This document shows, piece after piece, positions 12,668 to 47,795 of a stretch of 61,763 nucleotides of DNA. The position numbers were made by a program, and so were the translations under genes. The notes beneath the pieces are model-generated. The model did not search any database, was not told where the DNA came from, and worked only from the letters and a program-made list of their open reading frames with translations. How positions within the stretch are numbered: the stretch's first letter is position 1; every line of letters begins with the position of its first letter. The stretch lies in the sequence record SRR33789315_30; one strand, written 5' to 3'.

Positions 12668-13690
12668 TTATAATGTGTTTAAAAAACCTAATAAGAATTG
12701 ATGCATTTCTTCGGTATAATCATAATGCGTGCAGATTCTTAATTTTCCTTTTCCCATAGTACTGATATGTATATTACCTGACTCTAATTTAGTCTTATAT
12801 ATTATTTCATCTACTTTGTCTTTCAGACTAAATATTACAATATTGGTTTCAACTGCTTCTACTTTTTCTACTGATTCACTGCTCTTTAATACTTGGGCAA
12901 TTTCTTGAGCACGACGGTGATCCTCTTGCATTTGTGACCAGTTATGATCCAGCGCATAAAGTCCGGCAGCAGCCATAAACCCTACTTGTCGCATCCCACC
13001 TCCTAACATCTTTCTCACGCGTAAAGCTTTATCCATATACTTCTTTTTACCAACTAATACAGATCCCATAGGCGCTCCCAGTCCTTTAGACAAACAGACA
13101 GATATTGTATCAAACACTTCCCCGTATTGCGTAGGCGTTTCATTTTGTGCTATTAATGCATTCCATAATCGTGCACCATCCAGATGTAATCCCAAATTAT
13201 ATTTATCACAAACTTCCCTGATATTTTTTATTTCCTTGAAATCATAACAAGCACCACCACCCTTATTAGTTGTATTCTCTAAACAGACTAAAGTAGATAA
13301 CGGACTATGATAAAAATCTGGTGGATTTATCGCCTCTTCAACTTGATCTGCAGTTATCATTCCTCTGTATCCATCTATCAGTTTACAGCTCACCCCACTA
13401 TTAAAAGAAGCTCCTCCACCCTCATAATTAAAAACATGAGCATATTTATCTGCAATGAGTTGTTCTCCGGGTTGAGTATGAATTTTTATAGCAGTCTGAT
13501 TTGTCATCGTACCGGTAGGAAAATATAATGCAGTATCCATCCCAAACATTTCTTTAATTCGGGTTTCTAAAGCATTAACTGTTGGGTCTTCTTTATAAAC
13601 ATCATCACCCACTTGAGCCGTAAACATGGCTTCTAGCATTCCTGGCGATGGTTTTGTTACCGTATCACTTCTTAAATCTATTCTCATCAT
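12668..13690 (-). CDS. ltaE: Low-specificity L-threonine aldolase
   Basis: IDLRSDTVT, GDDVY.EDPTV, ENTTN, HLDGARLWNA, CLSKGLGAPMG. Confidence 0.92.
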   Translation of the reverse strand: MMRIDLRSDTVTKPSPGMLEAMFTAQVGDDVYKEDPTVNALETRIKEMFGMDTALYFPTGTMTNQTAIKIHTQPGEQLIADKYAHVFNYEGGGASFNSGVSCKLIDGYRGMITADQVEEAINPPDFYHSPLSTLVCLENTTNKGGGACYDFKEIKNIREVCDKYNLGLHLDGARLWNALIAQNETPTQYGEVFDTISVCLSKGLGAPMGSVLVGKKKYMDKALRVRKMLGGGMRQVGFMAAAGLYALDHNWSQMQEDHRRAQEIAQVLKSSESVEKVEAVETNIVIFSLKDKVDEIIYKTKLESGNIHISTMGKGKLRICTHYDYTEEMHQFLLGFLNTL

Positions 13691-13714
13691 TATAATAATA
13701 TAGCTACTTAATAA

Positions 13715-14512
13715 TCATCTTAAATGTTCCCCTCCGTCAACTGGGATTATAGTACCCGTAATCCACCTAGCTTCTGGCAATGCAAGAAGATAAACAGCAT
13801 TTGCTACATCTTCAGGCAGCGTTAAACGTTCATTAGGGTTATGTTTTAATGCCTCTTCAATAAGTTTATCGCTTCCCGGAATAAGCAATAAACTTTCGGT
13901 TTTAGTTACACCAGCTTCAATACAATTTGCAGTAATATGTAAAGGTGCTAGTTCATATGCTAGACTTCTTATTAGAGCTTCTAAAGTTGCTTTAGCTGCC
14001 CCAACAGCCGCATAGTTAGGCAAGGTTTTTCTACTTCCGGCACTTGTGAAAGCTAAAATGCTGGCTTGAGGAGAAAACAACTTTGCCTCAAGAAACTCTT
14101 CTACCCACGCATACAGACTTAATGCCATCGCATCTATAGTTAACGTGAAATCTTTTGCTGAAAGGTGGTTTTTTTGAATATCTGAAATTATAGGTTTTAA
14201 ATTGCCCTTTGCTATGCTATGCAGTAAAACCTTTACTTTTTTTGAATCTTTTATAAAAAACTCTTTGACACTTGAAATATTCTCATTTTGTAAAGCATCC
14301 AGATTAAAATCTACACACAGAACATTACATTCTTTAATCTCCTCAATTTCTTTTGCAAGTTTTTCTAATTGACTTCGTCTTGTGCGGTGTATTATACATA
14401 TATGCATCCCGTGAAGTGCCAATTTCTTAGCCGAAGCTAATCCTAGACCAGATCCGCCTCCTAATACGCATGCCCATTCATTTTGATTTGAAGAATTAAA
14501 ATTTTTTACCAT
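13715..14512 (-). CDS. SDR oxidoreductase, enoyl-ACP reductase (FabL/FabI-like)
   Basis: GGGSGLG Rossmann motif; YAAVGAAK (Yx6K, enoyl-reductase spacing); ITG.IIPVDGG; overlaps the PKS stop. Confidence 0.8.
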   Translation of the reverse strand: MVKNFNSSNQNEWACVLGGGSGLGLASAKKLALHGMHICIIHRTRRSQLEKLAKEIEEIKECNVLCVDFNLDALQNENISSVKEFFIKDSKKVKVLLHSIAKGNLKPIISDIQKNHLSAKDFTLTIDAMALSLYAWVEEFLEAKLFSPQASILAFTSAGSRKTLPNYAAVGAAKATLEALIRSLAYELAPLHITANCIEAGVTKTESLLLIPGSDKLIEEALKHNPNERLTLPEDVANAVYLLALPEARWITGTIIPVDGGEHLR

Positions 14513-15573
14513 TGTAACAAAATTCGCTGAGCAGAAAAACCAGGACCAAAGCTAAGCATTAATCCATATTCATCGGGTGGTACTTTTGATTTGAGAAACT
14601 CCTCAAGTACGATTAAAACCGTTACACTACTCATATTACCAAACTGCCGCAGTACTTCTTTAGTAATATTTATATTTTTTCCAAATACACCAAATAACTT
14701 TTCTACAGTTTCTATAATTTTTCTTCCTCCGGGATGAAATATAAGATGATCTATCTCATGGATCTCAAGATTATTTTGTTTCAAAAAAGGATTAATCACC
14801 ATTGGGAAATGTTCGGCTATCGTTTCGGGTACAGATTTATCTAAAATCATTTTTAAACCAAAATTTGTTAACTTAAAACCCATCATATGTTCTGCATCAT
14901 AAAAATGATACATCCCAGTATCCTTAATCACGGGCCCACTATCTTCTTCGCAAGAAGACAATAAAACACAAGCAGCTCCATCCCCAAAAATAGCAGCACT
15001 TACTACATTTGCCATCGAAAAATCAGTATGCTGAAAGGTAGCCGTAGGGCTTTCTACAGCAATTATAGCCGCGCGCTTTCCGCTATTTGCCTTTAAAAAA
15101 TCGTTGGCATAAACCATCGCTGATATGCCAGCAGCACATCCCATTTCGGTGACGGGTAAACGCACGATATCTTGTCGTAAATGCAATCTATTTATTAAAT
15201 AGGCGTCTAACGATGGGATCATTATACCCGTACAACTCACTGTAATAATATAGTCCAAATCTGTACCAGCCCATTGCGCGTCGCTTAATGCCTTCTGTAA
15301 AGCTTTCTCCCCTAAATTGGTCATTTCACGCGCATACACTTCATTTTTTTCTTCAAATGAGGTTGCTGTAAAAACTTCTTCTGGAGACAATATACTATAG
15401 CGTCTGTCAACACCAGCATTGCCAAATATTTTTTTGACTTTACGCCTAAAACGTTCATCCTGATTTATTAACCAAGTATCTAAAAGGGGAATAATCTCTG
15501 CTGTATCTCGTGTATACAAAGGCAATTGGTGAGCTACACCTATTACTTTGACTCCTGATTTTCTATTATCCAT
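14506..15573 (-). CDS. Type III polyketide synthase
   Basis: Catalytic Cys in EMGCAAG, His in FHPGG, Asn in FGNMSS; also IFGDGAA and SFGPGF. Confidence 0.93.
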   Translation of the reverse strand: MDNRKSGVKVIGVAHQLPLYTRDTAEIIPLLDTWLINQDERFRRKVKKIFGNAGVDRRYSILSPEEVFTATSFEEKNEVYAREMTNLGEKALQKALSDAQWAGTDLDYIITVSCTGIMIPSLDAYLINRLHLRQDIVRLPVTEMGCAAGISAMVYANDFLKANSGKRAAIIAVESPTATFQHTDFSMANVVSAAIFGDGAACVLLSSCEEDSGPVIKDTGMYHFYDAEHMMGFKLTNFGLKMILDKSVPETIAEHFPMVINPFLKQNNLEIHEIDHLIFHPGGRKIIETVEKLFGVFGKNINITKEVLRQFGNMSSVTVLIVLEEFLKSKVPPDEYGLMLSFGPGFSAQRILLQW

Positions 15574-16250
15574 AAATATCTATACGCCCATCGCCAATCC
15601 AAGGAATAGTTTTTTATATTCAATTTTTTAGCATAGTCTATTATTTCTTCTTTTTTAAATCCTCTTTTTATAGAAATTTTACCATCATGTCTCGCTAATT
15701 TTGTTTTCATCATCAACGGACTAATAATACTAAATGCCCCCAAAGCTACACGAGATCGATGTAGATCATTAATTACAATCCCCAATTTTGCTACACGTTG
15801 CATATTGCTTACTATTTGGAGCACTTCATCATCGTTAAAATGATGTAAGGTTAGTGAGCAAATAATTATATCATATGTTACATTTTCCTTTTTAAGATCG
15901 AGAATATCAGCAAGAACATACGTGATTTCTGGATAGACAGCAGATCTATTTTCTGCAATAGAAATACTAACTGGGTTTATCTCCCATCCTGTTAAGGTTG
16001 CTTTTATATCTTTTTTTCTAAAAGATCTAGCTAATATTTTAAGTAATTCTCCATTACCGCTTCCCAAATCTAATACACTGTATTTTTTTTGTGGATATAA
16101 CTGTAGGAGTTTTTGTACCCCACTAAGGGTACCTTTATGACCTCCCAACCAACGGTTAACCTTGTCAATATCACTCAACGCCTTTTTAAGGGTTTTACGT
16201 TTTATATTAGGTCCATCCATTAATTCGGGGATAAGCTCTCTATGCTTCAT
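15543..16250 (-). CDS. SAM-dependent methyltransferase (type III PKS-associated)
   Basis: VLDLGSGNG motif I, SLTLHHF, INDLHRS, HDGKISI.RGF. Confidence 0.88.
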   Translation of the reverse strand: MKHRELIPELMDGPNIKRKTLKKALSDIDKVNRWLGGHKGTLSGVQKLLQLYPQKKYSVLDLGSGNGELLKILARSFRKKDIKATLTGWEINPVSISIAENRSAVYPEITYVLADILDLKKENVTYDIIICSLTLHHFNDDEVLQIVSNMQRVAKLGIVINDLHRSRVALGAFSIISPLMMKTKLARHDGKISIKRGFKKEEIIDYAKKLNIKNYSLDWRWAYRYLWIIENQESK

Positions 16251-17370
16251 ACATTGACGGTTTGCCGTGTGTTTTTGCTATTATTTTTAAAAGAAGCCCT
16301 GGCATTAATTTTAAAGCTCTCACTGCATGATGAGTTAGCTGTTTATTTTGAATTCCCTTTTGTAATATCGCTCCTGTTGAAATTCTTGTAGAAAAATGCC
16401 TTTTCCAATGTTCAATATAGGCGTTTTCTAAAACATCTCTATTTTTTTCACCCGAATCAAAATAGGCATTAAAACAAGTGGTTAAAATCTTAGCACTCAT
16501 AATCGCCATAGCCATACCATTACCACATAAGGGATGAATAAGAGCTGCGCTATCTCCACACATGATTATATGATCCTTTATTAAAGATTTTCGCTCAAAT
16601 GAAATTTGGCTTATACTTAAACGCTTATCAAATATCATTTCTGAATGTGTGTAAAAGTCATTCAATATTGTATTTGCACGTAACACATGTTCCTCAAAAT
16701 CAGCAAAACCTTTATAAGATTGAAATATGGGCAAACTCACTAGATAACATACGTTTACTTTTCCATCTTCAATTTTTGAAACGCCACAATAGCCTCCTTT
16801 AAATGTAAAAAGGCCCACTGTATCACTAGACCATGTTCCTTTATAATGTGCTTTTACTGCAAGCCACTGACTTCTTTTTTTTATAAAATTACGAGATAAG
16901 GAAATATCTAGATTGCTGCGTTTACCATAGGCTCCTATTACAAATTTACTTTGATATGTCTTACCTGACTGGCATTCAACTACAAAGTGATCCTTAACAT
17001 AGTGTACTGCAACCACTTTATCTTGTCTCAGCTCACAATTTGAATCTTTTAGTTTTTCATAAAAAAGGTTGTCTAACGTATATCTACTTAAACCGAATCC
17101 CCCTAAAGGCAACCTTGTTTTAAGACTATTACCTTTTTCGTCTAACAAATTTAAATTGTGTATAGCTACCGCTCCAGCTGCATAAGGATCTATACCTAAT
17201 TCTTTTAAATAGGGAAGCACCTCATTAGAGATGTATTCGCCACACACTTTATGGGAAGGAAAGGTGCCTTTTTCAATGAGAGCTAAATTATAATCATATC
17301 GTGACAAATCCATTGCCAAGGTCAACCCTGCCAAACCTCCTCCTACAATTATAATATCTCTTTCTACCAA
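16240..17370 (-). CDS. NAD(P)/FAD-dependent oxidoreductase (geranylgeranyl reductase/monooxygenase-like)
   Basis: GGGLAG FAD motif, HKVCGEYIS, GDSAALIHPLCGNGMAMA; TTG start. Confidence 0.88.
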   Translation of the reverse strand: MVERDIIIVGGGLAGLTLAMDLSRYDYNLALIEKGTFPSHKVCGEYISNEVLPYLKELGIDPYAAGAVAIHNLNLLDEKGNSLKTRLPLGGFGLSRYTLDNLFYEKLKDSNCELRQDKVVAVHYVKDHFVVECQSGKTYQSKFVIGAYGKRSNLDISLSRNFIKKRSQWLAVKAHYKGTWSSDTVGLFTFKGGYCGVSKIEDGKVNVCYLVSLPIFQSYKGFADFEEHVLRANTILNDFYTHSEMIFDKRLSISQISFERKSLIKDHIIMCGDSAALIHPLCGNGMAMAIMSAKILTTCFNAYFDSGEKNRDVLENAYIEHWKRHFSTRISTGAILQKGIQNKQLTHHAVRALKLMPGLLLKIIAKTHGKPSMYEA

Positions 17371-31429: not shown

Positions 31430-33358
31430 ATGAAAGCTCTCTTTTTGGTATTAACCGCCTATTTTATAAGTATCTCTTCGTCTTTAGCTGCCCATTATCC
31501 ACCTACAGAAATAACATCTTCTATTGAAAAAGTCACCGTTTTCTTAAAAGGAGCCAGTATAGAACGTACGGCAACTGTCTCTGTAAAAGCAGGGCAAAAT
31601 AAAATTGTATTTAATAATCTTTCGCCTGCTATTATTGCCAATAGTATCCAGTTTAAGGGATTAAAAAATGCTTCGGTTTTAGCAATAAATTTCAACATTG
31701 ATTTTCTGGATAAGAAAGAACAATCTGCAGCTTATACTAAATTAAATAGTGAACTTGATGTACTCTTATTTGATAAAAATAATATCCAAAACACCATTTC
31801 AGGATATGAACGCGAACTCAAATTACTGGATAATAACCAACGTATTAATAGCGACCAGACTGATCTTTCGTTAGAAAAAATAAAACAAATTTCTGCTTAT
31901 TACCGCGAGCGTAGCACTGCGATTAATAATGCTATTTACAAGGAACGTGAAACACTTGCTGAGCTCGATAAAAAAATAAGAGATTACAATTTAGAGTTAC
32001 AAAAGCTTAATGATACCCGACGAGAAAAAAGAGGTGAAATCACCCTGAAACTTGATGCTGAACAAACCTCAACCCTGGATATAAACATCTCTTATACCAT
32101 TACAGATGCAGGCTGGTTTCCCATTTACGATATACGTGCAGACAACACCTCAAGTCCTATCTCGCTTAAATACAAAGGGAATGTGTATCAACAAAGCGGC
32201 GTAGATTGGGAGGATGTAAAACTCGTACTCTCTACAGGTGATCCTAATACCAATAACATCAAACCAGACCTAGCAACCAAATACCTCAACTTTGTTAGTC
32301 CATATTATAAAAAAGCTTCTGCTACAAACCGAAGCAATTATAAATTCAACCCTACCATACGCACCGTTTCGGGAATAGTTCTCGATGAATCGGGAACACC
32401 ATTGCCAGGCACAAGTGTACTTGTACGTGGCACCAACACAGGAACTACTACAGATTTTGACGGAAATTATACCATCAACATTAACGGCGGTCAGGAATTG
32501 GCCTTTTCCTATGTAGGTTTTAATACCGAAGTGCTTCCCGTATATTCTTCGGTAATGAATGTGAATATGGAAGAATCCCATGAATCCTTAGATGAAGTTG
32601 TGGTTGTGGGATATGGTGTACAGCGAGATAAGAAAGCATTAGGATATGCCGTTTCAGATGTGCTAGGATCAGCTCCGGGAGTCAAAATTCGCGGCATAAG
32701 CAGTATGGAACCTGCACAATACAATGAAACGGTTGAAGCTAAAGAAGAAAGCCTTACTAACATCAGGTTTACCATTAAAAAAAGCTATACGATCGTCTCC
32801 AGTAACGAAGTAACTACGATAGAAATTGACGATTTTGAGTTACCTGCCTCCTACCAGCATTATGCAGCACCAGAACTTAATGAAAACGTATTTCTTACCG
32901 CTACTGTAACAGACTGGGAAAAATATGACCTGCTTTATGGGGAAGCCAATATTTATTTTGACGGAAGTTATGCCGGCAAGACCGAAATTAATCCCATTGC
33001 CACGACAGATAGTCTGGAAGTCTCGATGGGAATAGACCCCAATGTGATTGTAACTCGTGAGAAGCTAGATAACTTTAAAAGCAAATCTTTCCTTGGCGGA
33101 AACCGAGTGATTCAACAAGGGTATAAAATAGAGGTGAAAAACAATAAGAGCACAGCTATCAACCTATTACTGGAAGATCGCATTCCTATCTCGCAAAACA
33201 AAGAGATTAAGGTAGATGATGTTGAAACGGGTGATTCAAAATATAATACAGAAACTGGTATCATGCAATGGAAGTTAGATCTCGCAACAAAAGCGACTAC
33301 AAAAAAGGAATTTTCATACGAAGTACGCTATCCTAAAAACCGACATATTAATTTGTAA
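31430..33358 (+). CDS. DUF4140/DUF4139 secreted protein with an inserted carboxypeptidase-regulatory-like (SusC N-terminal type) domain
   Basis: Signal peptide; VTVFLKGA.I.R, AGW.PIYD.R, QQSGVDW..V.L.LST, D.IP.S (DUF4139/4140); internal SGIVLDESG.PLPG..V...TTTDFDGNY...LDEVVVVGYG. Confidence 0.82.
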   Translation: MKALFLVLTAYFISISSSLAAHYPPTEITSSIEKVTVFLKGASIERTATVSVKAGQNKIVFNNLSPAIIANSIQFKGLKNASVLAINFNIDFLDKKEQSAAYTKLNSELDVLLFDKNNIQNTISGYERELKLLDNNQRINSDQTDLSLEKIKQISAYYRERSTAINNAIYKERETLAELDKKIRDYNLELQKLNDTRREKRGEITLKLDAEQTSTLDINISYTITDAGWFPIYDIRADNTSSPISLKYKGNVYQQSGVDWEDVKLVLSTGDPNTNNIKPDLATKYLNFVSPYYKKASATNRSNYKFNPTIRTVSGIVLDESGTPLPGTSVLVRGTNTGTTTDFDGNYTININGGQELAFSYVGFNTEVLPVYSSVMNVNMEESHESLDEVVVVGYGVQRDKKALGYAVSDVLGSAPGVKIRGISSMEPAQYNETVEAKEESLTNIRFTIKKSYTIVSSNEVTTIEIDDFELPASYQHYAAPELNENVFLTATVTDWEKYDLLYGEANIYFDGSYAGKTEINPIATTDSLEVSMGIDPNVIVTREKLDNFKSKSFLGGNRVIQQGYKIEVKNNKSTAINLLLEDRIPISQNKEIKVDDVETGDSKYNTETGIMQWKLDLATKATTKKEFSYEVRYPKNRHINL

Positions 33359-34516
33359 TTACTTTAAATTCTTTAAAATAAAATCAAGCTTTTTATTCTT
33401 GTTGTTATTGGCTACAAAAGACGTACTTAAATATTGCGCAGGTTCGGCAAGGCCTATTTCCTGTAATTTATTTATGGTTTCTAGATATTCTAAAGTTACT
33501 TTTCCAGTGAGTAAATTCATATAATTCACACCATTTTGACTGGCATCATAGATTTTCTTTAATCCGGTAAGATACAAGGCATCTTTAGTAAAGCCGCCAC
33601 CCCGATGCGCGCGTAAAGTCACTTGCCAAGACATACTTCTGTCTAATTTGTATTGATTATGTAAGAGATCAAATGTGTCTTTAAAATCATATCCTTTGCG
33701 TAAACTATCTGCTGCCAGCACACGATAGGCTAAAACTTTCAACCGTCGCATGGTGAGACACCCAGACATATATTCACTAAAAACGGCCAGACCTTCTTGG
33801 GTTTCGGTATTATTTACAAAACCGTTAGAGAAAATTTTTAAGGGCTGTTTTTTACCATTAAACGTGGTGACTAGATGTACCCCTATCTCATGATTAGCCA
33901 ATACCTGTAATTGATTTTCGCTAAAAACGTGGTTTTTCTTGAGCAACAAGGTTTCTGTAGCATTAAGTACCATAGCCTCTGCAGAAATATGTGTGCTTTG
34001 TTGTATTTTAAATTTAAAATCATAGCGCTCGCCAAAAACTTTAAAATAGGCTTCTGCCTCATTTGCCGTATAGCGCGGCAACATCTCATCTATAGTAAGA
34101 TCATCTTCAAAATGCAGAATAAACTTAGCGTTTTCTACATCGCGTTCTTTTGGAGTGCCAAAAACTTTTAAGGAATTATAATAAAACCGCTTGCCCTCAC
34201 CTATGCTTGCAAGACATTCTACTAAGCCTGAATATTCATAGATAATATCCTCATACAGTTTATGAATAACGGGATCTTTAATTTGCTCTAACGGAAGATT
34301 GAAAAATAACCGCTGCATTTGAAAAGGTTCAAACTTGAGTTTGCGGTAATTAAATTGTGGATTTTCAGCATATTTTGAAGCAAAAAACTTACGCTTTTCC
34401 TGTTCAATATTCAACGGATTGAGATAATACAACAACTCAACATCTCGCACCAGTTTATCTAACTGGTTATCAATATTAAAAAGGGTTGTATAATTCTGAA
34501 CAGCATCTATTTGCAT
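33359..34516 (-). CDS. QEGLA-motif / DUF1704 (MATCAP-like) metallopeptidase
   Basis: HEIGVH (HExxxH), TQEGLAVFSE, RGGGFTKDALYL.G. Confidence 0.88.
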   Translation of the reverse strand: MQIDAVQNYTTLFNIDNQLDKLVRDVELLYYLNPLNIEQEKRKFFASKYAENPQFNYRKLKFEPFQMQRLFFNLPLEQIKDPVIHKLYEDIIYEYSGLVECLASIGEGKRFYYNSLKVFGTPKERDVENAKFILHFEDDLTIDEMLPRYTANEAEAYFKVFGERYDFKFKIQQSTHISAEAMVLNATETLLLKKNHVFSENQLQVLANHEIGVHLVTTFNGKKQPLKIFSNGFVNNTETQEGLAVFSEYMSGCLTMRRLKVLAYRVLAADSLRKGYDFKDTFDLLHNQYKLDRSMSWQVTLRAHRGGGFTKDALYLTGLKKIYDASQNGVNYMNLLTGKVTLEYLETINKLQEIGLAEPAQYLSTSFVANNNKNKKLDFILKNLK

Positions 34517-34535
34517 CCTGCATATTTAAAAGGTG

Positions 34536-34543
34536 CAAATTTA
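34536..34543 (-). promoter_or_regulatory. Internal -7 promoter element upstream of the QEGLA gene
   Basis: TAAATTTG on - strand about 19 nt upstream of ATG 34516. Confidence 0.5.
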
Positions 34544-34569
34544 AACATCTCATGATAAAACGATCTCAA

Positions 34570-35397
34570 TTAGTCTGTTTTTGCCAAAAAAAGCTCAACA
34601 TGAGTGTTTATTTTACCACGCAAGCCTTTTTCTATAGCGGCAACCACTTCTGGAAAAATGATTCCGGTAAGCTCATCACAATAGATTTTTGAAAATTCTG
34701 TAGCCAGCACCAATACATTAGGAAAGTGCTGTGTGATATATTTTAAAAAATAACCATTACCTTGAAAGGTATCATTAATACCTGCTGTAGTAATATTGTT
34801 ATGTGGTAATTCTATTTGCGACAACATATCGCGCCAAGCTTCGGCTAATTCACCAAATCTTGCTTGATCTATATTTGTAGTACCTAGGTTTATAACAGGA
34901 ACTTCCCTATCCCAACGTTTCCAGTTATAAGAATGCATATCATAAACAACAGCTTTCCCGTGAATTGAAGTCACTTTTTCTACCAGAGCGTGTACCACCT
35001 CATAAAAAGCTTGATGTTTGGCTAGGCTTTGTTGTTTTTCGGCTTCAGAAAGAGGTGTTTTCCATAATTTTTTACCCCAAGCGTCTTCATATATTGCATT
35101 TTCGGGATCGCGATTAAGATCATATTCAAAACGACTGTCACAACCCGCAATAACGATAGGATGGGATTTTACAAAATAGTTAGTACAGGGATCTTCTTCA
35201 TACCAGCGATCATATTCACTATGCAAACATTTTTCCCATAAGTCTTTTCTAAATTGGTGTCCATTGTGCACGGCACCACAAATATAAGGGACAAATTCTT
35301 CTACTTTAAGCGTAAAGGAATAATCACTGGCGACAGCTTCAAAAGTTTCTCCGTTTTTTATTTTAGCTATAATTTCTGCTACTGTAAGATATTGCAT
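34570..35397 (-). CDS. N-formylglutamate amidohydrolase family protein
   Basis: AVHNGH, EEDP.T, SRFEYDLNR, YDMHSY, NLGT, ND.FQG, LATE motifs of the FGase (zinc carboxypeptidase-like) family. Confidence 0.85.
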   Translation of the reverse strand: MQYLTVAEIIAKIKNGETFEAVASDYSFTLKVEEFVPYICGAVHNGHQFRKDLWEKCLHSEYDRWYEEDPCTNYFVKSHPIVIAGCDSRFEYDLNRDPENAIYEDAWGKKLWKTPLSEAEKQQSLAKHQAFYEVVHALVEKVTSIHGKAVVYDMHSYNWKRWDREVPVINLGTTNIDQARFGELAEAWRDMLSQIELPHNNITTAGINDTFQGNGYFLKYITQHFPNVLVLATEFSKIYCDELTGIIFPEVVAAIEKGLRGKINTHVELFLAKTD

Positions 35398-35409
35398 AAT
35401 AATTCGGTT

Positions 35410-36441
35410 TTAAGCCTCATCTACATGCTTGCGCAACTTGGCTCTTCTATCCATACGGTTAACGCGCGAAAGCACCATATCTTCTACAAAGTTGATTACC
35501 TTCTCGTGTACTTTCACCTTATAAACACGATTCATATACGTAATCCCGCCCGGACTCATAACATTTACCTCAACAAGCATTCCATTAATCACATCAATCC
35601 CAACAAAATACAAACCATCTTTAACCAATTTTGGTCCAATTTTACGGCAAAGTTCTTTTTCCTTTAGAGTCATAACGTGCTTGGCAATGGTTCCGCCCGC
35701 ACTTATATTAGAACGGTGATCATCTTCTCCGGGAACGCGTCGCATAGCGCCTATGGGTTTTCCGTTAAGCATAAGAATACGTACATCGCCCTGATCTGCT
35801 CCTTCTATATAATCTTGAAGAATGACATAGTTTGAAGTACCATCTTTATTTGTAATGTAGAAATCCAGCAACGAACTAATACTGTTCATCGCATTTTTTT
35901 CGATTAAAATAACCCCAGAACCTCCAAAACCATTGAGTGGTTTTAATATCATCTTGTCTTTATCTGACTCTTTGATCATTTTAAGGAGATAATCTTTATT
36001 CTTAGTTACATGGGTTTTGGGAATAAATTCATTGTTTTCGTCCTCAAAAACAGCAGTATATAATTTATTATTTGCTCTGCGGATTCCGTCTATATCATTC
36101 ATGATAAAAACATCATCTTTTACCGAATCTAAGAAATTGAGCATGATGGTATCTAATGGCGGATTACTGCGTAGAATAATAACATCAAACCCCGCAAGCG
36201 GAAGCATTTCATCTCTAAATTGTGCTTTTGTATGAAACGTTTTTTGTGACGAAGAAATCTTCTCTGCCCGTACAAGCACTTTACAAAATGCATACGTAAC
36301 ACTGTCTCTTATAGTAAGATTTGCAGGAGTAATTATAGCTACACCGTGCCCGCGCTTAGCGCATTCGCGTACAAGAGATAAAGAAGAATCATCCTCAGGC
36401 TTGATCTCTTCCCAAGGATACATCAGAAAACATACATTCAT
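35410..36441 (-). CDS. Glutathione synthetase-like ATP-grasp ligase
   Basis: GshB-like N-domain (FLMYPWE..., LRSNPPLD), KPLNGFGGSGV, QDYI, GDVRI, RSNISAGG, GIDVI, EVNV.SPGG. Substrate not established. Confidence 0.85.
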   Translation of the reverse strand: MNVCFLMYPWEEIKPEDDSSLSLVRECAKRGHGVAIITPANLTIRDSVTYAFCKVLVRAEKISSSQKTFHTKAQFRDEMLPLAGFDVIILRSNPPLDTIMLNFLDSVKDDVFIMNDIDGIRRANNKLYTAVFEDENNEFIPKTHVTKNKDYLLKMIKESDKDKMILKPLNGFGGSGVILIEKNAMNSISSLLDFYITNKDGTSNYVILQDYIEGADQGDVRILMLNGKPIGAMRRVPGEDDHRSNISAGGTIAKHVMTLKEKELCRKIGPKLVKDGLYFVGIDVINGMLVEVNVMSPGGITYMNRVYKVKVHEKVINFVEDMVLSRVNRMDRRAKLRKHVDEA

Positions 36442-36507: not shown

Positions 36508-37971
36508 TTACTTTTTATGAGGCACTTTATCTTCCTCTATATCCCAAGCTTTATCCGGATCTTTTGCAGGATCATAATGTAGCATCCCTTCTCCTTTAGC
36601 AATTATAGAAGAAACCGTAGCGTCACCAGTTACATTTACAACGGTACGACACATATCTAGAATACGGTCAACAGGAAGAATAATCCCAATCCAAGCCGGA
36701 TTTAATCCTACAGATTGCAACACAATAATCAACATAACCAGACCAGCACTAGGAACCGCCGCAGAACCTATAGAAGCTAATGTAGCGGTCAAAACAATCG
36801 TCAATTGTTGCCCTATGGTCAAATCAATCATATGCAGTTGTGCTAAAAAGACCACAGCTACTGCCTGATACAAACAAGTACCATCCATATTTACCGTAGC
36901 ACCTATAGGCAACACAAAACTGGCGATTTTATTATCTACGCCCAGATTATCCTCAACACACTCCATAGTTACTGGAAGTGTAGCCGCACTACTCGATGTA
37001 GAAAATGCCAACGTTTGTGCCGGTCCCATCGCTTTAAAAAATCCTTTATACGGAATTACACGTACCAAAAGTTTAATCAATAACGGATAAACAATAAAGA
37101 TCATCACCATTAAGCCTAGAAAAACAGTAAGCGAATACCAACTTAAGCCTTTAAAAATTTCGACTACTTTACCTATATCATCTCCCGCCATTTTACTTAC
37201 CACTCCAGCAAGTAATGCAAACACAAAAAACGGTGCGGCTTGCATAACAAGATCTACCATTTTAAGAAAAACCTCCATTATGCCATCTACAGCCTTAGTG
37301 ATAGGAGCCGATTTTTTATTGTCTATAAAGAGTAAACTTATCCCAAAAAAGAGTGCAAAGAAAATCACCTGAAGCATTCTTCCGTTATCTGCAAGAGCAT
37401 CAAAAAAGTTTTGTGGGACTAAATCTACGAGTGGTTGTAAAGGACCTTGTCCTTTAGTTTGGTCTGCAGTTGCCATTTTTTCGTTAACCGTGGCATTGAT
37501 ATCTGCTTTAGAAAGATCTGTTATTTCTCTGGCACGTTCAACAAAAGCAGGGTCTTTTAAATAATGGATTCCGTCTTTAATTTCCAGATTTTGAGAATCT
37601 GCCCAAATTTCATAACTAATCCTATTGTCTATTCGGCTTTGCTCATCGACCAATTTTCCGGGCTTTATGATATTAACCAAAGCCAAACCTAAAGACACGG
37701 CAAGCAACGTAGTAATGAGATAGGCTAGCAAGGTTTTGCCGCCCATTCTTCCCAGACTAGAAGGATCTCCAATATTTGCAACGCCATTGATGATACTGAA
37801 AAAAACCAGCGGTACAGCAATTAATTTTAAGAGATTGATGAAAATGGTACCAAAAGGGGCGATCCAATTTACCGTGAACTGGCTCCATCCCATTGTACTG
37901 GACAACAGGGCCCAGATAATACCCAATACCAATCCTATTATAATCTTCCAGTGCAGTGCCAGTTTCTTCAT
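36508..37971 (-). CDS. Dicarboxylate/amino acid:cation symporter (GltP/DAACS family)
   Basis: AFSTSSSAATLP, GATVNMDG, DRILDMCRT.VNVTGD. Confidence 0.93.
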   Translation of the reverse strand: MKKLALHWKIIIGLVLGIIWALLSSTMGWSQFTVNWIAPFGTIFINLLKLIAVPLVFFSIINGVANIGDPSSLGRMGGKTLLAYLITTLLAVSLGLALVNIIKPGKLVDEQSRIDNRISYEIWADSQNLEIKDGIHYLKDPAFVERAREITDLSKADINATVNEKMATADQTKGQGPLQPLVDLVPQNFFDALADNGRMLQVIFFALFFGISLLFIDNKKSAPITKAVDGIMEVFLKMVDLVMQAAPFFVFALLAGVVSKMAGDDIGKVVEIFKGLSWYSLTVFLGLMVMIFIVYPLLIKLLVRVIPYKGFFKAMGPAQTLAFSTSSSAATLPVTMECVEDNLGVDNKIASFVLPIGATVNMDGTCLYQAVAVVFLAQLHMIDLTIGQQLTIVLTATLASIGSAAVPSAGLVMLIIVLQSVGLNPAWIGIILPVDRILDMCRTVVNVTGDATVSSIIAKGEGMLHYDPAKDPDKAWDIEEDKVPHKK

Positions 37972-42533: not shown

Positions 42534-43067
42534 ATGAAAAATAGAATACTTGCATTTATCCTTCTTGTAGGCATTATACCCTTACAAGCCCAAAAGGTCA
42601 AAGGCGAAGTGATCACTGAGTTTGGTGAAACTTTTCCTGTATTAAACCCCGATTTTAAAACAGATACTTCAACTACCTTTAAAGTAGTTTTTGACATTTC
42701 CAGGGCTCCACAAGATTCCACGCAGATTAGTCCTTTTTTTAATACCGCTGCCAGATTTCTCAACATGCACCAAGGCGCAGGTGTACCACTTGAACAGTTA
42801 AAACCCGTTTTAGTTGTGCATGGTAATGCCGCTTATGGCTTATTAAACAATGCTGCTTACCAAGAAATGTATGGTGTTGACAATCCTAATCTCTCACTTT
42901 TAGACGCCTTACATAAGGCAGGAGCACAAATTATTATCTGTGGTCAGACTGCTCAAGCACGTGATATTTCTAAAGAAAAAAGATGGCCCCAGACGCGTCT
43001 TGCACTTTCGGCAATGACAGCTTTAATACAACTTCAAAATGATGGCTACCGCTTGATTTCATTTTAA
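42534..43067 (+). CDS. Secreted DsrE-family protein
   Basis: Signal peptide; KVVFDI, LVVHG.A, ICGQT, SAMTALIQLQ..GY. Confidence 0.75.
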   Translation: MKNRILAFILLVGIIPLQAQKVKGEVITEFGETFPVLNPDFKTDTSTTFKVVFDISRAPQDSTQISPFFNTAARFLNMHQGAGVPLEQLKPVLVVHGNAAYGLLNNAAYQEMYGVDNPNLSLLDALHKAGAQIIICGQTAQARDISKEKRWPQTRLALSAMTALIQLQNDGYRLISF

Positions 43068-43087
43068 AAATCCCTTAATACTAATTT

Positions 43088-44377
43088 ATGAAAAACCTAC
43101 TTACCCTTATTTTAATAACCCTTTTTACTGCAATAGGGTTTACACAAACCTCTCCCGACCCCGAGTTGATGGCTGCTGCAGAAAAAATCGAAGATAAAGT
43201 TATCGCCTGGCGTCGTGATTTTCATGAACATCCAGAACTGAGTAATCGTGAATTTGAAACCGCTAAAAAAGTTGAAAAACATTTAAAATCCTTGGGCATT
43301 CAAGTACAAACCGGAGTTGCCCATACTGGAGTGGTAGGTGTACTTAAAGGGGACTATCCTGGTAAAACAGTGGCGTTACGAGCAGATATGGATGCGCTTC
43401 CGGTTACAGAGCGCAATAATCTTCCGTTTAAAAGTTTAGTAAAAACCTCCTTTTTAGGTACAGAAACCGGTGTGATGCATGCGTGCGGTCACGATACGCA
43501 TACTTCTATCCTGATGGGTGTAGCCGAAATTCTTTCGCAGCATAAAGACAAAATACACGGTACGGTAAAATTCATATTTCAACCCTCAGAAGAAGGAGCA
43601 CCTCCGGGAGAAGAAGGTGGCGCGCGCTTAATGATTAAAGAAGGAGTGCTTAAAAATCCAGATGTAGATGCTATTTTTGGTCTACATATCAATTCGGCTA
43701 CGCCCGTAAATACTATTTTATATAAGCCCGGTGGAACAATGGCTGCGGTAGAACGTTTTGTGGTAAAAGTAAAAGGAAAACAAACCCACGGTTCTGCACC
43801 GTGGGCAGGAGTTGATCCTATATATATTTCGGCAAAAATCATAGATGGTTTTCAGTCTATCATTAGTAGAGAGTCTAATTTAACTAAAGAAGCTGCTGTG
43901 ATTACCGTAGGAAAAATCACAGCAGGTGTGCGCTTTAACATCATTCCCGAAGAAGCCGAAATGATAGGAACTGTACGTACCTTAGATCCTGATATGCGCG
44001 AACACATTATTCGCAGAATGAATGAGGTTGCAGAAGGTCTAGCAAAAACCTACGGCGGTAGTGCCGCTATAGAATGGCAAGACAACACCTTAATCACTTT
44101 TAATGACCTTGAGCTTACCGCACAAATGCTACCTACTTTACAAGAAATTGCCGGTAGTGATCACATAGTACTGACTAAGGCAAGTACAGGCGGTGAAGAT
44201 TTTAGTTATTTTCAAGAACAAGTTCCCGGTTTCTTTTTCTTTTTAGGCGGAATGACTCCCGGTAATAAAGAAGCATTTCCACACCATACACCCGATTTTC
44301 AAATCGATGAAGCCGGACTGCTTCTAGGTGTTAAAACAATGAGTCAACTTACTATAGATTACCTAAACGCTCAATAA
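43088..44377 (+). CDS. M20D amidohydrolase (N-acyl amino acid hydrolase family), secreted
   Basis: HPELS.RE, LRADMDALP, HACGHD.H, FQP.EEG, GEDFS, PHH; signal peptide. Confidence 0.9.
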   Translation: MKNLLTLILITLFTAIGFTQTSPDPELMAAAEKIEDKVIAWRRDFHEHPELSNREFETAKKVEKHLKSLGIQVQTGVAHTGVVGVLKGDYPGKTVALRADMDALPVTERNNLPFKSLVKTSFLGTETGVMHACGHDTHTSILMGVAEILSQHKDKIHGTVKFIFQPSEEGAPPGEEGGARLMIKEGVLKNPDVDAIFGLHINSATPVNTILYKPGGTMAAVERFVVKVKGKQTHGSAPWAGVDPIYISAKIIDGFQSIISRESNLTKEAAVITVGKITAGVRFNIIPEEAEMIGTVRTLDPDMREHIIRRMNEVAEGLAKTYGGSAAIEWQDNTLITFNDLELTAQMLPTLQEIAGSDHIVLTKASTGGEDFSYFQEQVPGFFFFLGGMTPGNKEAFPHHTPDFQIDEAGLLLGVKTMSQLTIDYLNAQ

Positions 44378-44379
44378 AC

Positions 44380-45654
44380 ATGAAAACTAAATTTCTAGTA
44401 CTCGTATTTATTTTGGGATGCTTCGGTTTTGCCCGTGCCCAAAAAGGTTATGAAAAAGCTATTGAAAAAATAGAGCCTAAATTAATTGAATGGCGAAGGG
44501 ATTTTCATCAATATCCTGAATTATCCAACCGTGAATTTAAAACGGCTGAAAAAATTGCTACACATCTTAAGTCTTTAGGGATGGATGTACAAACCAATGT
44601 AGCTAAAACAGGAGTGGTAGGGATCTTAAAAGGAACCAAACCCGGTAAAGTTTTAGCTTTACGCGCAGATATAGACGCATTGCCTGTAGAAGAACGCGGG
44701 GATCTTCCGTTTAAATCTATAGAAAAAAGCAGCTATCTGGGTAACGAAGTAAGTGTGATGCACGCCTGTGGTCACGATACACATATTGCGATCTTGATGA
44801 GTGTTGCCGAAATTCTTGCCAAGAACAATAATTTCCCAGGGACTATTAAGTTTATTTTTCAGCCTGCAGAAGAAGGAGCTCCTCCAGGAGAAGAAGGCGG
44901 TGCAGAGCTTATGGTTAAAGAAAATGTACTGAAAAACCCAGATGTAGATGCTATTTTTGGTTTGCATATCGCTTCAGAATTGCCCGTTAATTATATTTCA
45001 TACAAATCAGGAGGAATAATGGCGGCGGCGCAAAGTTTTGAAATCAATATAAAAGGAAAACCTAGCCACGGCTCTACCCCTTGGACCAGTATTGATCCTA
45101 TTATGACAGCCGTAAAAATCATTGACGGCTTGCAAACAATAATCTCACGGGAAGTCCCGCTTACACAAGAGGCGGCCGTAATTTCTATGGGTAAAATCAC
45201 AAGTGGTGTGCGTAATAATATCATTCCTGAAACTGCCCAAATACTGGGAACCATACGTACTCTGGATTATGATATGCAAAAAACCATAAACCAAAGAATG
45301 AAAGAAATGGTTCCTGCAATTGCTGCTGCTTATCGTGCCGAAGCTACTATTGATATTACCAAAGGAACTCCTATTGTATACAATGATCCTAAGCTTACCA
45401 GCCAAATGCTACCTTCTATAGAAAAAACAGCTGGCAAGGAACATATTATTATAACTAAAGCCATTACGGGTGCAGAAGATTTTTCATTCTTTTCAAATGA
45501 AATACCCGGTCTTTATTTTTTCTTGGGCGGAAAAGCCTTAGACTCAAAAGAGGCTGCACCACACCATACTCCAGATTTTAAAATTGATGAAAGCGGAATG
45601 CTTTTAGGAGTCAAAACTTTTATTCAACTTGCAATAGATTATTTAAACGGTTAA
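44380..45654 (+). CDS. M20D amidohydrolase, tandem paralog
   Basis: Same motifs (LRADIDALP, HACGHD.H, FQPAEEG, AEDFS, PHH); signal peptide; 2 bp after the first copy. Confidence 0.9.
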   Translation: MKTKFLVLVFILGCFGFARAQKGYEKAIEKIEPKLIEWRRDFHQYPELSNREFKTAEKIATHLKSLGMDVQTNVAKTGVVGILKGTKPGKVLALRADIDALPVEERGDLPFKSIEKSSYLGNEVSVMHACGHDTHIAILMSVAEILAKNNNFPGTIKFIFQPAEEGAPPGEEGGAELMVKENVLKNPDVDAIFGLHIASELPVNYISYKSGGIMAAAQSFEINIKGKPSHGSTPWTSIDPIMTAVKIIDGLQTIISREVPLTQEAAVISMGKITSGVRNNIIPETAQILGTIRTLDYDMQKTINQRMKEMVPAIAAAYRAEATIDITKGTPIVYNDPKLTSQMLPSIEKTAGKEHIIITKAITGAEDFSFFSNEIPGLYFFLGGKALDSKEAAPHHTPDFKIDESGMLLGVKTFIQLAIDYLNG

Positions 45655-45657
45655 TTT

Positions 45658-47274
45658 ATGGATTCAATTCTGGCTTTTTTGGGCGAACTCCCTTGGTGGG
45701 GATATCTCGTTTTTGCCCTCTTTCTTATTGCCATCAAAGATGTGTTTTTTAATAAAAAGCACATCATAAAGCACAATTTCCCCATAGTAGGGCGAATTCG
45801 CTATATGATTGAAGGTATAGGACCAGAATTGAGACAATATATTGTAGCCAGTAACAGAGAAGAGTTACCATTTAATCGCATAGAACGCGGTTGGATTTAC
45901 GCTTCGGCTAAAAACGAAAATAATTACGAGGGTTTTGGTACAGATCAAGACATTTATAAACCCAACTATATTTTTATCAATAATGCCATGATGCCTTATA
46001 AAGTTAATTTGGATCATCCCAATGCGGGAGATCCTTATTTTCTACCGTGTGCTAAAGTGATGGGAGCTTACAACAAGCGCAGAAGACCGTTTCGCCCGGC
46101 ATCTATTATTAATGTTTCTGCAATGAGTTTCGGCTCTCTATCTGCGCGTGCTATAGAATCGTTAAACAAAGGTTGTGGTCGGGCTCATGCGTTTCACAAT
46201 ACCGGTGAAGGCGGTCTTTCACCCTACCACAGAACGGGAAGCGATGTGATGTTTCAATTTGGTACCGGATATTTTGGTGTACGGGATGCAAATGGTGGTT
46301 TTTCTATGGAAAAAATCAAGGAGCTCACCGAAGAATTTCCGCAAATACGTGCGATAGAGATTAAACTTTCTCAAGGTGCAAAACCTGGAAAAGGTGGTGT
46401 GCTTCCTGCTGCAAAAATCACCAAAGAGATTTCAGAAATACGTCATGTCCCTATGGGTCAAGATGTCCTGTCACCTCCTAATCATTCGGCTTTTAGCGAT
46501 GTTCCTAGTCTTTTAAAGTTTGTAGAGGAAGTTGCAGAAACTACCGGATTACCAGTAGGAATTAAAGCGGCTATTGGCAAACTTGAGCAATGGAGAGAAC
46601 TGGCTGCCCTTATGGCCACTTCTGGTCGGGGTCCAGATTTTATTACTATAGATGGTGGTGAAGGTGGTACTGGAGCTGCTCCGCCTAGTTTTGCAGATCA
46701 CGTATCCTTACCTTGGGTTTTTGCTTTTGGGGATATCTACAAAATATTTAAAGAACATAAACTCACAGATCGTATTGTCTTTATAGGTGCCGGAAAATTA
46801 GGTTTACCTGCAAAAGGGGCTATGGCTTTTGCTATGGGTGCAGATCTTATTTATGTGGCACGTGAAGCGATGATTGCGATAGGTTGTATTCAGGCTCAGG
46901 TATGTCATACAAATACCTGCCCTACTGGTGTTGCCACACAAAATAAATGGCTTCAGGCAGGGATAAATATCAATGACAAAGCTATACGCACCCAATTTTA
47001 TTTTAAAAATTACCGAAAAGAATTACTCGAACTGGCTCACGCTTGTGGCTACGAGCATCCTTGCCAGATGACTATGGAAGATGTAGATTTTAGTTTAGGT
47101 GATCGCAGCTTAGTACAACCCTTATCGCATTGTTTTGGATATAATAAGGTTCCTGTACATTTTGAAAATGTGCAATCTTTAATGGATTGCGAGCATCTAG
47201 GTGGCCAATATTCTCATCAAAAAGCAGAGAAAAAAACTAAAATTGCAGCAGCAAAAAGTGAAGTACGTTACTAA
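45658..47274 (+). CDS. FMN-binding glutamate synthase family protein (YerD-like), N-terminal membrane anchor
   Basis: SAMSFGSLS, NTGEGG, EIKLSQGAKPG.GG, DGGEGGTGAAP, Fe-S motif CIQAQVCHTNTCP; no amidotransferase domain. Confidence 0.9.
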   Translation: MDSILAFLGELPWWGYLVFALFLIAIKDVFFNKKHIIKHNFPIVGRIRYMIEGIGPELRQYIVASNREELPFNRIERGWIYASAKNENNYEGFGTDQDIYKPNYIFINNAMMPYKVNLDHPNAGDPYFLPCAKVMGAYNKRRRPFRPASIINVSAMSFGSLSARAIESLNKGCGRAHAFHNTGEGGLSPYHRTGSDVMFQFGTGYFGVRDANGGFSMEKIKELTEEFPQIRAIEIKLSQGAKPGKGGVLPAAKITKEISEIRHVPMGQDVLSPPNHSAFSDVPSLLKFVEEVAETTGLPVGIKAAIGKLEQWRELAALMATSGRGPDFITIDGGEGGTGAAPPSFADHVSLPWVFAFGDIYKIFKEHKLTDRIVFIGAGKLGLPAKGAMAFAMGADLIYVAREAMIAIGCIQAQVCHTNTCPTGVATQNKWLQAGININDKAIRTQFYFKNYRKELLELAHACGYEHPCQMTMEDVDFSLGDRSLVQPLSHCFGYNKVPVHFENVQSLMDCEHLGGQYSHQKAEKKTKIAAAKSEVRY

Positions 47275-47795
47275 TGGAAGAAACTATTTTTGATATCTTA
47301 AAAAGTGTTGGACCTGCTATTGTTGTAGGGGTAATTGCTTATTATTTCTTTGATCGATTTATAGACAATGAAGATAAGCGCAGAAAATTTTTATTGGTTA
47401 AAGATGTAAAGAAAAGTACCATTCCCATTACATTACAAGCCTATGAGCGCTTGGCCTTATTTTTAGAGCGAATTAGCCCTGCCCAACTGCTGGTGCGCGT
47501 AAAACCTACTAGTCAAGACAAACAAGTTTATTCTCGTCTCTTAAATCAACAAATCGAACAAGAATTTGAGCACAATTTGTCGCAACAAATCTACATTACC
47601 CAAGAGTGCTGGAATGTGATTAAATCTTCAAAAAATGCGATGGTTAAACTCATACGAACAGCAGGTGAGAATGAAAATATTAAATCGGCAGACCAACTGC
47701 GTGAGTTTATTTTACAGCAAACCGTAGAAAAGCCTGCTCCAAGTAGTGTCGCTTTAGAATACCTTAAAAATGAGGTTAAAATGGTTTTAGGATAA
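47274..47795 (+). CDS. Conserved hypothetical membrane-anchored protein
   Basis: N-terminal TM; LQAYERLALFLERI.P and EFEHNLSQQIY; 1-bp TAATG overlap with the upstream gene. Confidence 0.75.
   Translation: MEETIFDILKSVGPAIVVGVIAYYFFDRFIDNEDKRRKFLLVKDVKKSTIPITLQAYERLALFLERISPAQLLVRVKPTSQDKQVYSRLLNQQIEQEFEHNLSQQIYITQECWNVIKSSKNAMVKLIRTAGENENIKSADQLREFILQQTVEKPAPSSVALEYLKNEVKMVLG

Follow-up and report, generated by a model that had tools for sequence, protein, structure and literature searches.

A conserved bacterial gene module that joins a GshB-like ATP-grasp ligase with FGase-fold and MATCAP-family hydrolases

A 61,763-nucleotide stretch of marine flavobacterial DNA (sequence record SRR33789315_30; the whole of this stretch is called the window below) carries three co-oriented open reading frames (ORFs) on its minus strand, coding for an ATP-grasp ligase, a hydrolase of the N-formylglutamate amidohydrolase (FGase) fold, and a zinc carboxypeptidase-like protein of the MATCAP/DUF1704 ("QEGLA") family. 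This arrangement is more than chance: the three genes form a real conserved module, and the catalytic motifs of all three families are intact. The module is most likely a widespread, uncharacterised cytoplasmic enzyme set, and its ligase, although named a glutathione synthase in databases, is probably not one. As for what the set does, we tentatively favour, at slightly less than even confidence, a reading in which the ligase would add a glutamate- or aspartate-type residue to a small acidic acceptor, the FGase-fold enzyme would remove it, and the MATCAP-like enzyme would trim the acceptor. A literature search that left most subscription journals outside its coverage found no experimental or descriptive paper on the bacterial module. 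Its genes are the following.

35410..36441, minus strand: ATP-grasp ligase of the NF009110/PRK12458 clade ("T1"), 343 aa, assigned by Pfam, NCBIfam, and a tree; called glutathione synthase elsewhere
34570..35397, minus strand: FGase-fold amidohydrolase, 275 aa, assigned by Pfam FGase, an AlphaFold2 (AF2) model, and Foldseek
33359..34516, minus strand: MATCAP/DUF1704 "QEGLA" zinc carboxypeptidase-like protein, 385 aa, assigned by Pfam MATCAP and motifs

Gaps of 12 and 53 bp separate the three genes, which lie below a symporter gene; the coordinates agree with the ORF list and with the layout given in a first-pass annotation of this DNA. That annotation had also reported that the window holds no gshA, and Pfam scans of 48 window ORFs (5 at the locus and the other 43 of at least 110 aa) likewise returned no glutamate-cysteine ligase family.

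Conservation carries the case for a module. With the ligase as query, a genome-collection scan yielded 28 Flavobacteriaceae loci, and the ligase-FGase-QEGLA order is kept in 24 of them, the others being cut by contig ends (3) or degraded (1). Among 201 Bacteroidota genomes, the MATCAP family PF08014 occurs in 8, in one of them as fragments only; each of the eight intact MATCAP genes has a strong GSH-S_ATP match no more than 3 kb away, and 8 of the 9 strong GSH-S_ATP matches (at least 159 bits) adjoin a MATCAP gene. A plasmid and chromid collection contains the module in Photobacterium (ligase 60% identical to that of the window), Aminobacter, Rhizobium, and Sinorhizobium, with Rhizobiaceae and Phyllobacteriaceae replicons among the carriers. 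The ligase and MATCAP genes are no more than 900 bp apart in 11/11 plasmid or chromid records common to both listed tables. Also, a metagenome scan with a QEGLA alignment gave 80 marine relatives, 56-72% identical, 53 of them assessable because at least 2.3 kb of upstream sequence was present. This sample consists of close marine relatives only and does not widen the taxonomic range. The triad stands at 42 of these 53 loci, and the other 11 have aroC, the SDF symporter gene, and QEGLA only.

The module occurs in three architectures. In architecture A, which is the form of the window, the ligase, FGase, and short QEGLA proteins are encoded by three genes. In architecture B, found in genome G108 and Photobacterium, the ligase is followed by an FGase::QEGLA fusion of ~665 aa. 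Architecture C, found in several Bacteroidota, Aminobacter, and Sinorhizobium pSymB, combines FGase, a long QEGLA protein of ~610 aa, and a second ligase ("T2"), ~30% identical to that of the window; three loci (L022, L129, and L130) combine A and C and hold both ligases. Fused forms are common among the nearest members of the FGase subfamily: a search of 1.84 billion representatives with the FGase-like query gave 520 clusters at E values up to 1e-3, and 40 of the best 150 of these 520 representatives are FGase::QEGLA fusions, with the FGase part N-terminal in 40/40. Moreover, in several relatives, L018 and L022 among them, the ligase gene overlaps that of FGase, and none of the 53 metagenome loci has lost just one of the two; both observations are consistent with a ligase/deacylase pair. 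The functional link among the three genes that the first-pass annotation had proposed is thus borne out by cross-phylum conservation, by fusion, and by gene overlap.

Partner exchange at the long-type loci bears on the chemistry. Fourteen long-type Bacteroidota loci have either an FGase partner upstream (10 loci) or an AstE/AspA-family gene directly after the ligase (4 loci: L030, L035, L036, and L131), and none of the fourteen has both partners or neither. Given this exchange, the simplest task for the third enzyme is to free an acidic amino acid from an N-amide. Such a release is the reverse of a glutamate-adding ATP-grasp reaction. The closest complete relative, G001, holds one of the exchanged loci, a type-2 cluster (L030, G001:C1:1261000-1275000) with a long QEGLA protein of 612 aa, a second ligase of 352 aa, and an AstE/AspA-family protein of 299 aa. 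Elsewhere the same genome carries an operon (L029, G001:C1:362146-365952) of an RLAN-RimK-like ATP-grasp protein (485 aa), GCS2 (406 aa), and a short FGase (227 aa), which is a second, different ligase-plus-FGase system.

The identity of the ligase decides how the rest is read. Pfam assigns it GSH-S_ATP (1.9e-53) and GSH-S_N (4.2e-24), it matches Escherichia coli GshB (1GSA) with 126 bits, and it keeps the GshB catalytic residues R86, K125, K160, R210, R225, R233, N235, D273, E281, and N283. NCBI and JGI label its relatives glutathione synthase, with 3593 matches in public records. These properties would suit an ordinary glutathione synthase that lies beside two unrelated hydrolases by chance, an explanation that we regard as already largely refuted and very improbable. 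The top NCBIfam model for the ligase is NF009110, at 450.7 bits (cut-off, 408), and on TIGR01380 it reaches 230.7 bits against a cut-off of 299.05. In contrast, four of four bona fide GshB proteins score 405-464 bits on TIGR01380, 416-496 on NF003573, and 194-222 on NF009110. Module ligases in general score 171-244 on TIGR01380 and 386-497 on NF009110, a clean split from the bona fide enzymes.

A maximum-likelihood tree of 26 proteins, with RimK rows as an outgroup on a branch of 3.5, gives the same division. Bona fide GshB (support 99/99), T2 (98/98), and T1 with the window ligase (95/99) form separate clades. Furthermore, 22 positions that are invariant across six bona fide GshB proteins are replaced in 10/10 T1 ligases (e.g., E124N, T288G, and E292Y), and the alignment shows a C-terminal extension relative to GshB. 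In the ligase, an SPGG segment stands in place of SPT(C/G) of GshB. Because a literature search found no published substrate-contact residues for E. coli GshB, these 22 clade-specific replacements were not mapped to ligand contacts. An argument built on RimK lacking the GshB lid loop was dropped, as the loop region is visible in every aligned clade.

Genomic context likewise speaks against glutathione. Searches for gshA in five module-carrying relatives and 201 Bacteroidota genomes found PF04262 in 0/5 and, over cut-off, in 0/201. GCS2 (PF04107) occurs in one of the five relatives, there inside a separate RLAN-ATP-grasp, GCS2, and FGase operon; PF03074 was found in 0/5, and the positive control was likewise without any match. 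BshC is present in 5/5 relatives, which fits the bacillithiol synthesis genes that Flavobacteriaceae widely encode according to one report (PMC12719100). Adjacency to QEGLA, moreover, is kept across phyla. Genome G180 has the sole strong GshB match without MATCAP among the 201 Bacteroidota genomes; this gene scores 227.9 bits on GSH-S_ATP, has a GCS2 gene two genes off and no MATCAP gene, and behaves like true gshB. At that locus (L046, G180:C1:1489000-1502000), a single DNase II-family gene stands between the bona fide-type gshB (323 aa) and the gene for the GCS2-type ligase (452 aa).

Three points weigh on the other side. The ligase passes NF003573, the NCBI glutathione-synthase equivalog, by a narrow margin (283 bits versus a cut-off of 272). 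The 26-protein tree does not settle the mutual order of the GshB, T1, and T2 clades. Finally, the absence of gshA is a property of the relatives, the window's own genome having lain outside the scope of the searches. With these weighed in, the sequence evidence indicates that the ligase is probably not a glutathione synthase, as the first-pass annotation had maintained, and that the database name for the clade is probably wrong, because its carriers appear to make bacillithiol and lack a gamma-Glu-Cys ligase.

After the glutathione synthase models, the next-best NCBIfam matches of the ligase are alpha-L-glutamate ligases, MptN (102 bits) and CofF (E value, 9.2e-6). Both enzymes cap cofactors, and one could imagine a system that adds glutamates to, and trims them from, a cofactor with a glutamate tail (a folate-like compound, for example), all the more as pteroyl-glutamate is an N-acyl glutamate, the bond type that FGase-like enzymes cut. 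We consider this explanation highly doubtful, since the MptN and CofF scores are far under the family cut-offs and no cofactor biosynthesis gene is conserved by the module at any examined locus. The ligase also falls outside the RimK clade (TIGR00768, 93.1 bits against a cut-off of 143.4). The TTL domain PF03133 was not matched by the window ligase in the Pfam scan, and one related T2 ligase gave only a sub-threshold 16-bit match.

The second gene product belongs to Pfam FGase (PF05013; 2.2e-16, 61.1 bits, cut-off 28.9). Its AF2 model (mean predicted local distance difference test [pLDDT] score, 88.8) is closest in Foldseek to 2q7s, an N-formylglutamate amidohydrolase (E value, 1.7e-12; TM score, 0.70), followed by M14 carboxypeptidases, including CCP5, and poly-gamma-glutamate hydrolases. 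Residues H44, G46, H47, S88-R96, D153, H155, and E234 are invariant in 7/7 aligned sequences. By sequence, neither the subfamily profile (E values up to 1) nor the single sequence matched a solved structure. The protein is not HutG by the TIGR02017 equivalog (24.1 bits against a cut-off of 278.75), and no hut gene family is present among the 48 scanned ORFs of the window. The activities described for the FGase and AstE/AspA families concern small N-acyl amino acids, and their named members hydrolyse N-acyl-Glu or N-acyl-Asp.

The third gene product matches Pfam MATCAP/DUF1704 (PF08014) at 1.5e-102 and 343.7 bits over positions 2-363 of 365, and it scores 325.9 bits on TIGR02421, slightly below the cut-off of 338.65. 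Its HExxxH (H209-H214) and QEGLA (Q240-A244) motifs are invariant in 10/10 aligned relatives, and they align with HEIGTH and EEGLA of human MATCAP (PDB 7Z5G; E value, 3.7e-9). Long QEGLA proteins have an extra N-terminal part of ~235 aa that matches no Pfam family. Compared with the FGase subfamily profile by hhalign, this part aligns over 197 columns (76.5%; E value, 2.2e-5), with the catalytic-motif segments missing. Its AF2 model (pLDDT, 83.3) gave 2q7s (Z 9.8) and 2odf (Z 9.4) as top VIA-align matches, with amidases and carboxypeptidase A within 1 Z of the FGase structures; Foldseek returned weak, generic matches to zinc peptidases and phosphorylases (TM scores, 0.3-0.4). We have moderate confidence that this part is a degenerate FGase domain. 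Together with the FGase::QEGLA fusions, such a domain suggests that the two hydrolases act as a unit. Two QEGLA genes are broken: in L001:5931-7050 (a Leeuwenhoekiella metagenome-assembled genome [MAG]) the gene is in two pieces, and in L028:8211-8757 (a 1.8-Mb Flavobacteriales MAG) QEGLA fragments and 20 ligase residues remain, from decay or assembly error in either case.

How might three such enzymes work together? What follows about the bond formed and cleaved, the residue added, the acceptor's size, and the role in the cell is our inference. In the reading that we favour, the ATP-grasp ligase would turn a carboxylate into an acyl phosphate and couple it to an amino acid, with glutamate or a similarly acidic residue as the most likely choice. 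The FGase-fold enzyme would reverse this step by hydrolysing an amide of the N-acyl-Glu/Asp type, which sets the acidic residue at the C terminus free. Acting as a unit with this enzyme, the MATCAP-like zinc carboxypeptidase would take a C-terminal residue off the same acceptor. That acceptor would most likely be a small acidic peptide or N-acyl amino acid, with a protein tail as a possibility, and the whole module would probably be tied to amino acid uptake and adjustment to low osmolarity.

The same enzymes could instead edit proteins. The acidic C terminus of some cellular protein would then be extended by the ligase and shortened by the two carboxypeptidase-like enzymes, in the manner of RimK on ribosomal protein S6 and of TTL/TTLL with MATCAP and CCP on tubulin. 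This possibility is rather unlikely, although several observations suit it. The only characterised MATCAP-family enzymes, as described in PMC10499314, are protein C-terminal carboxypeptidases, with the match to 7Z5G placing QEGLA in their company. The FGase-like model resembles M14 carboxypeptidases including CCP5, and an eraser without a writer (11/53 loci) would be natural if the trimmed residue is genetically encoded. Two-ligase clusters (L022, L129, and L130) recall initiating and elongating enzymes. Also, RimK stands beside an AstE/AspA-family gene in two Bacteroidota genomes, which is the same pairing logic. On the opposite side, the ligase retains the GshB N-terminal substrate domain and in the tree is closer to GshB, which acts on small molecules, than to RimK; known FGase and AstE/AspA members act on small substrates; the neighborhood of the module contains no conserved gene for a candidate target; and longer fused forms of the ligase did not score, which is weak evidence. 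The RimK genes just mentioned (L047 in G001 and L048 in G141, with Pfam run on the L048 protein only) directly adjoin the AstE/AspA-family gene and may themselves be a glutamate ligase/deglutamylase pair of Bacteroidota.

A bolder form of the protein hypothesis holds that the module is a bacterial protein C-terminus editing system and the prokaryotic source of eukaryotic MATCAP, which we judge to be unlikely. Here the MATCAP-like enzyme would clip the encoded last residue from the acidic tail of an abundant protein; a residue of the glutamate type would be put on by the GshB-like ligase and taken off by the FGase or AstE/AspA-type enzyme. The state of the tail would then track cellular glutamate and ATP pools as osmolarity falls. 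A close variant would be a reversible glutamate "capacitor," in which free glutamate is condensed into a small peptide at low osmolarity.

A catabolic or salvage route is quite unlikely in our estimation. Its hydrolases would degrade an imported or endogenous acidic peptide-like compound that enters by way of the neighboring transporter, with the ligase as an accessory step of re-synthesis or activation. It would account for the QEGLA gene that stays by the SDF symporter when ligase and FGase are gone (11/53 loci), for hydrolases without a ligase in L135 and Vibrio sp. HDW18, and for neighboring amino acid transporters of two families, SDF in the window and APC in G120. Nevertheless, an ATP-spending ligase is out of place in such a route, yet one accompanies 8/8 intact QEGLA genes in the 201 genomes; the conserved genes include none that would oxidise or modify the compound between the two steps of ligation and hydrolysis; and the transporters are not conserved beyond the Flavobacteriaceae.

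A number of findings weigh against the ligase/deacylase reading that we favour. The QEGLA-alone loci (11/53) fall at several separate places of a QEGLA FastTree (support values left aside), a distribution that suggests repeated loss of ligase and FGase. No ligase accompanies the FGase and long QEGLA genes of L135, and in Vibrio sp. HDW18 a 663-aa QEGLA protein stands alone. Since hydrolases occur without the ligase, their substrate is independent of this ligase, and the pairing is not a closed writer/eraser loop. In 16 of 42 metagenome triads, a two-domain rhodanese gene separates the ligase gene from that of FGase. A ligase co-expressed with its own hydrolase would run a futile cycle unless regulated, and the nature of the added residue is a guess by analogy with the families RimK, MptN, CofF, FGase, AstE, and AspA. 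Further points against, which touch the physiological side, are that simple synteny may account for the symporter link, aroC being retained as well, and that we take the salt-responsive Photobacterium gene RS17020 (below) to be the module ligase from consecutive locus tags and two other Photobacterium replicons. Of the reversible cycle of one ligase and two hydrolases that the first-pass annotation had put forward, the gene link therefore stands, and the closed pairing of writer and eraser does not.

Co-oriented insertions of the rhodanese gene and/or a small TerB-like gene between ligase and FGase are seen at L016:8022-9192, at L023:8212-9033, and in 20 of 42 metagenome triads. Their carriers make up one or two clades of the QEGLA tree, and these genes look like lineage-specific insertions (one or two events) rather than core parts.

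Two further features adjoin or lie within the module.

36508..37971, minus strand: SDF-family (GltP/DctA-like) symporter, 487 aa, assigned by Pfam SDF; 66 bp ahead of the ligase gene, with an uncertain tie to the module
34536..34543, minus strand: TAAATTTG, a Bacteroidota -7-like promoter motif, 27 nt ahead of the QEGLA start

The symporter ORF matches Pfam SDF at 3.3e-120, and its best NCBIfam model is GltP (252.6 bits, under the cut-off of 638). An SDF gene lies within 4 kb of the module in 32/32 assessable metagenome (Flavobacteriaceae) loci and is not beside it in Photobacterium, Aminobacter, or G108. The link is thus confined to Flavobacteriaceae, where aroC is syntenic too. An APC amino acid permease gene adjoins the module in G120, and MscS-type channel genes lie beside it in L003, L005, and 5/53 metagenome loci. 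The only expression data found come from Photobacterium damselae. According to PMC10308900, chromosome II genes RS17020 ("GshB") and RS17025 (QEGLA) are, respectively, 38-fold and 27-fold higher at 1% than at 3% NaCl, and RimK is 52-fold higher.

The -7-like motif that the first-pass annotation had placed before the QEGLA gene is present. TAnnTTTG, which we take to be the Bacteroidota -7 consensus, occurs within 80 nt upstream of QEGLA in 29/76 relatives versus 6/68 upstream of the ligase, the relatives not being independent of one another; its density in the window (0.74 per kb per strand) leads to a chance expectation of ~5/76 for the QEGLA position. An internal promoter before QEGLA is therefore plausible. 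The intergenic gaps of the module contain no terminator-like site, and scans for sigma-70 promoters and terminators stayed at the level of shuffled sequence.

The module extends a known theme in which a ligase is met by a peptidase, as in RimK with a hydrolase or TTL with MATCAP. First, RimK and its co-encoded hydrolase, which in Pseudomonas is reportedly RimB, are like the module in that an ATP-grasp amino acid ligase of the same branch stands by a hydrolase able to undo its bond, and RimK adds a glutamate-type residue to a C-terminal carboxylate, as proposed for the module ligase. In contrast to RimK, the module ligase is outside the RimK clade (TIGR00768, 93 versus 143), and its hydrolases are of the FGase and MATCAP families. 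The target of RimK is ribosomal protein S6. Low salt raises the expression of both RimK and the module in Photobacterium damselae (PMC10308900).

Second, the tubulin tail cycle (TTL/TTLL versus MATCAP/TMCP and CCP) likewise combines a MATCAP-family HExxxH enzyme, a zinc-carboxypeptidase-like hydrolase, and an ATP-grasp ligase. The module differs from it in having a GshB-like ligase that does not match PF03133, in the absence of tubulin, and in that a protein substrate is hypothetical. Third, E. coli GshB (1GSA) shares with the ligase two Pfam domains, a 126-bit match, and ten catalytic residues; unlike GshB, the ligase has a separate clade, 22 replaced positions, a C-terminal extension, carriers without gamma-Glu-Cys ligase, and linkage to QEGLA.

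Fourth, the mammalian N-acetyl-aspartyl-glutamate cycle consists of the RIMKLA/B ligase, glutamate carboxypeptidase II, and aspartoacylase. There, as would be the case for the module, an ATP-grasp enzyme adds a C-terminal residue to an N-acylated acidic amino acid, a metallocarboxypeptidase removes it, and an enzyme of the AstE/AspA clan deacylates the rest, and the exchange of FGase for AstE/AspA fits this logic. The carboxypeptidase is of family M28 in the mammalian cycle and MATCAP in the module, however, and we know of no N-acetyl-aspartyl-glutamate-type compound from these bacteria. Finally, the RLAN-ATP-grasp, GCS2, and FGase operons (as in G001, L029), reportedly described by Iyer et al. 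in 2009, resemble the module in pairing an amide ligase with an FGase-family hydrolase. They differ from it in the family of the ligase and in having no MATCAP-family member.

Other parts of the window merit brief mention. A convergent MuiA-like/CarboxypepD_reg gene (31430-33358, plus strand) ends where QEGLA ends, the two stop codons abutting (33358/33359) with no terminator spacer. At 1387-2592 (plus strand), a 401-aa protein combines an HD domain with a C-terminal PycTM (Pycsar effector) transmembrane domain; the gene is possibly anti-phage effector-like and has no obvious cyclase alongside. A row of genes for a beta-eliminating lyase, an SDR protein, a type III polyketide synthase-like protein, a methyltransferase, and an FAD-binding protein (12668-17370, minus strand) resembles a small secondary-metabolite or pigment cluster. 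Also, 6 kb from the module, a run of genes in one direction (42534-47795, plus strand) codes for a DsrE-like protein, two tandem M20 peptidases, a glutamate-synthase-domain protein, and DUF7935, and may be a second operon for handling amino acids or peptides.

Thousands of proteins in the ligase clade are named "glutathione synthase," a name that is probably wrong and misleads metabolic models. The exchange of FGase for AstE/AspA narrows the chemistry of the module to a bond of the N-acyl-Glu/Asp type, and the low-salt induction in Photobacterium offers a condition under which its product may be sought. Moreover, in this module an ATP-grasp ligase is linked to the sole bacterial relatives of MATCAP, the tubulin detyrosinase, so the origin and the original substrate of the MATCAP family become testable in easily grown bacteria.

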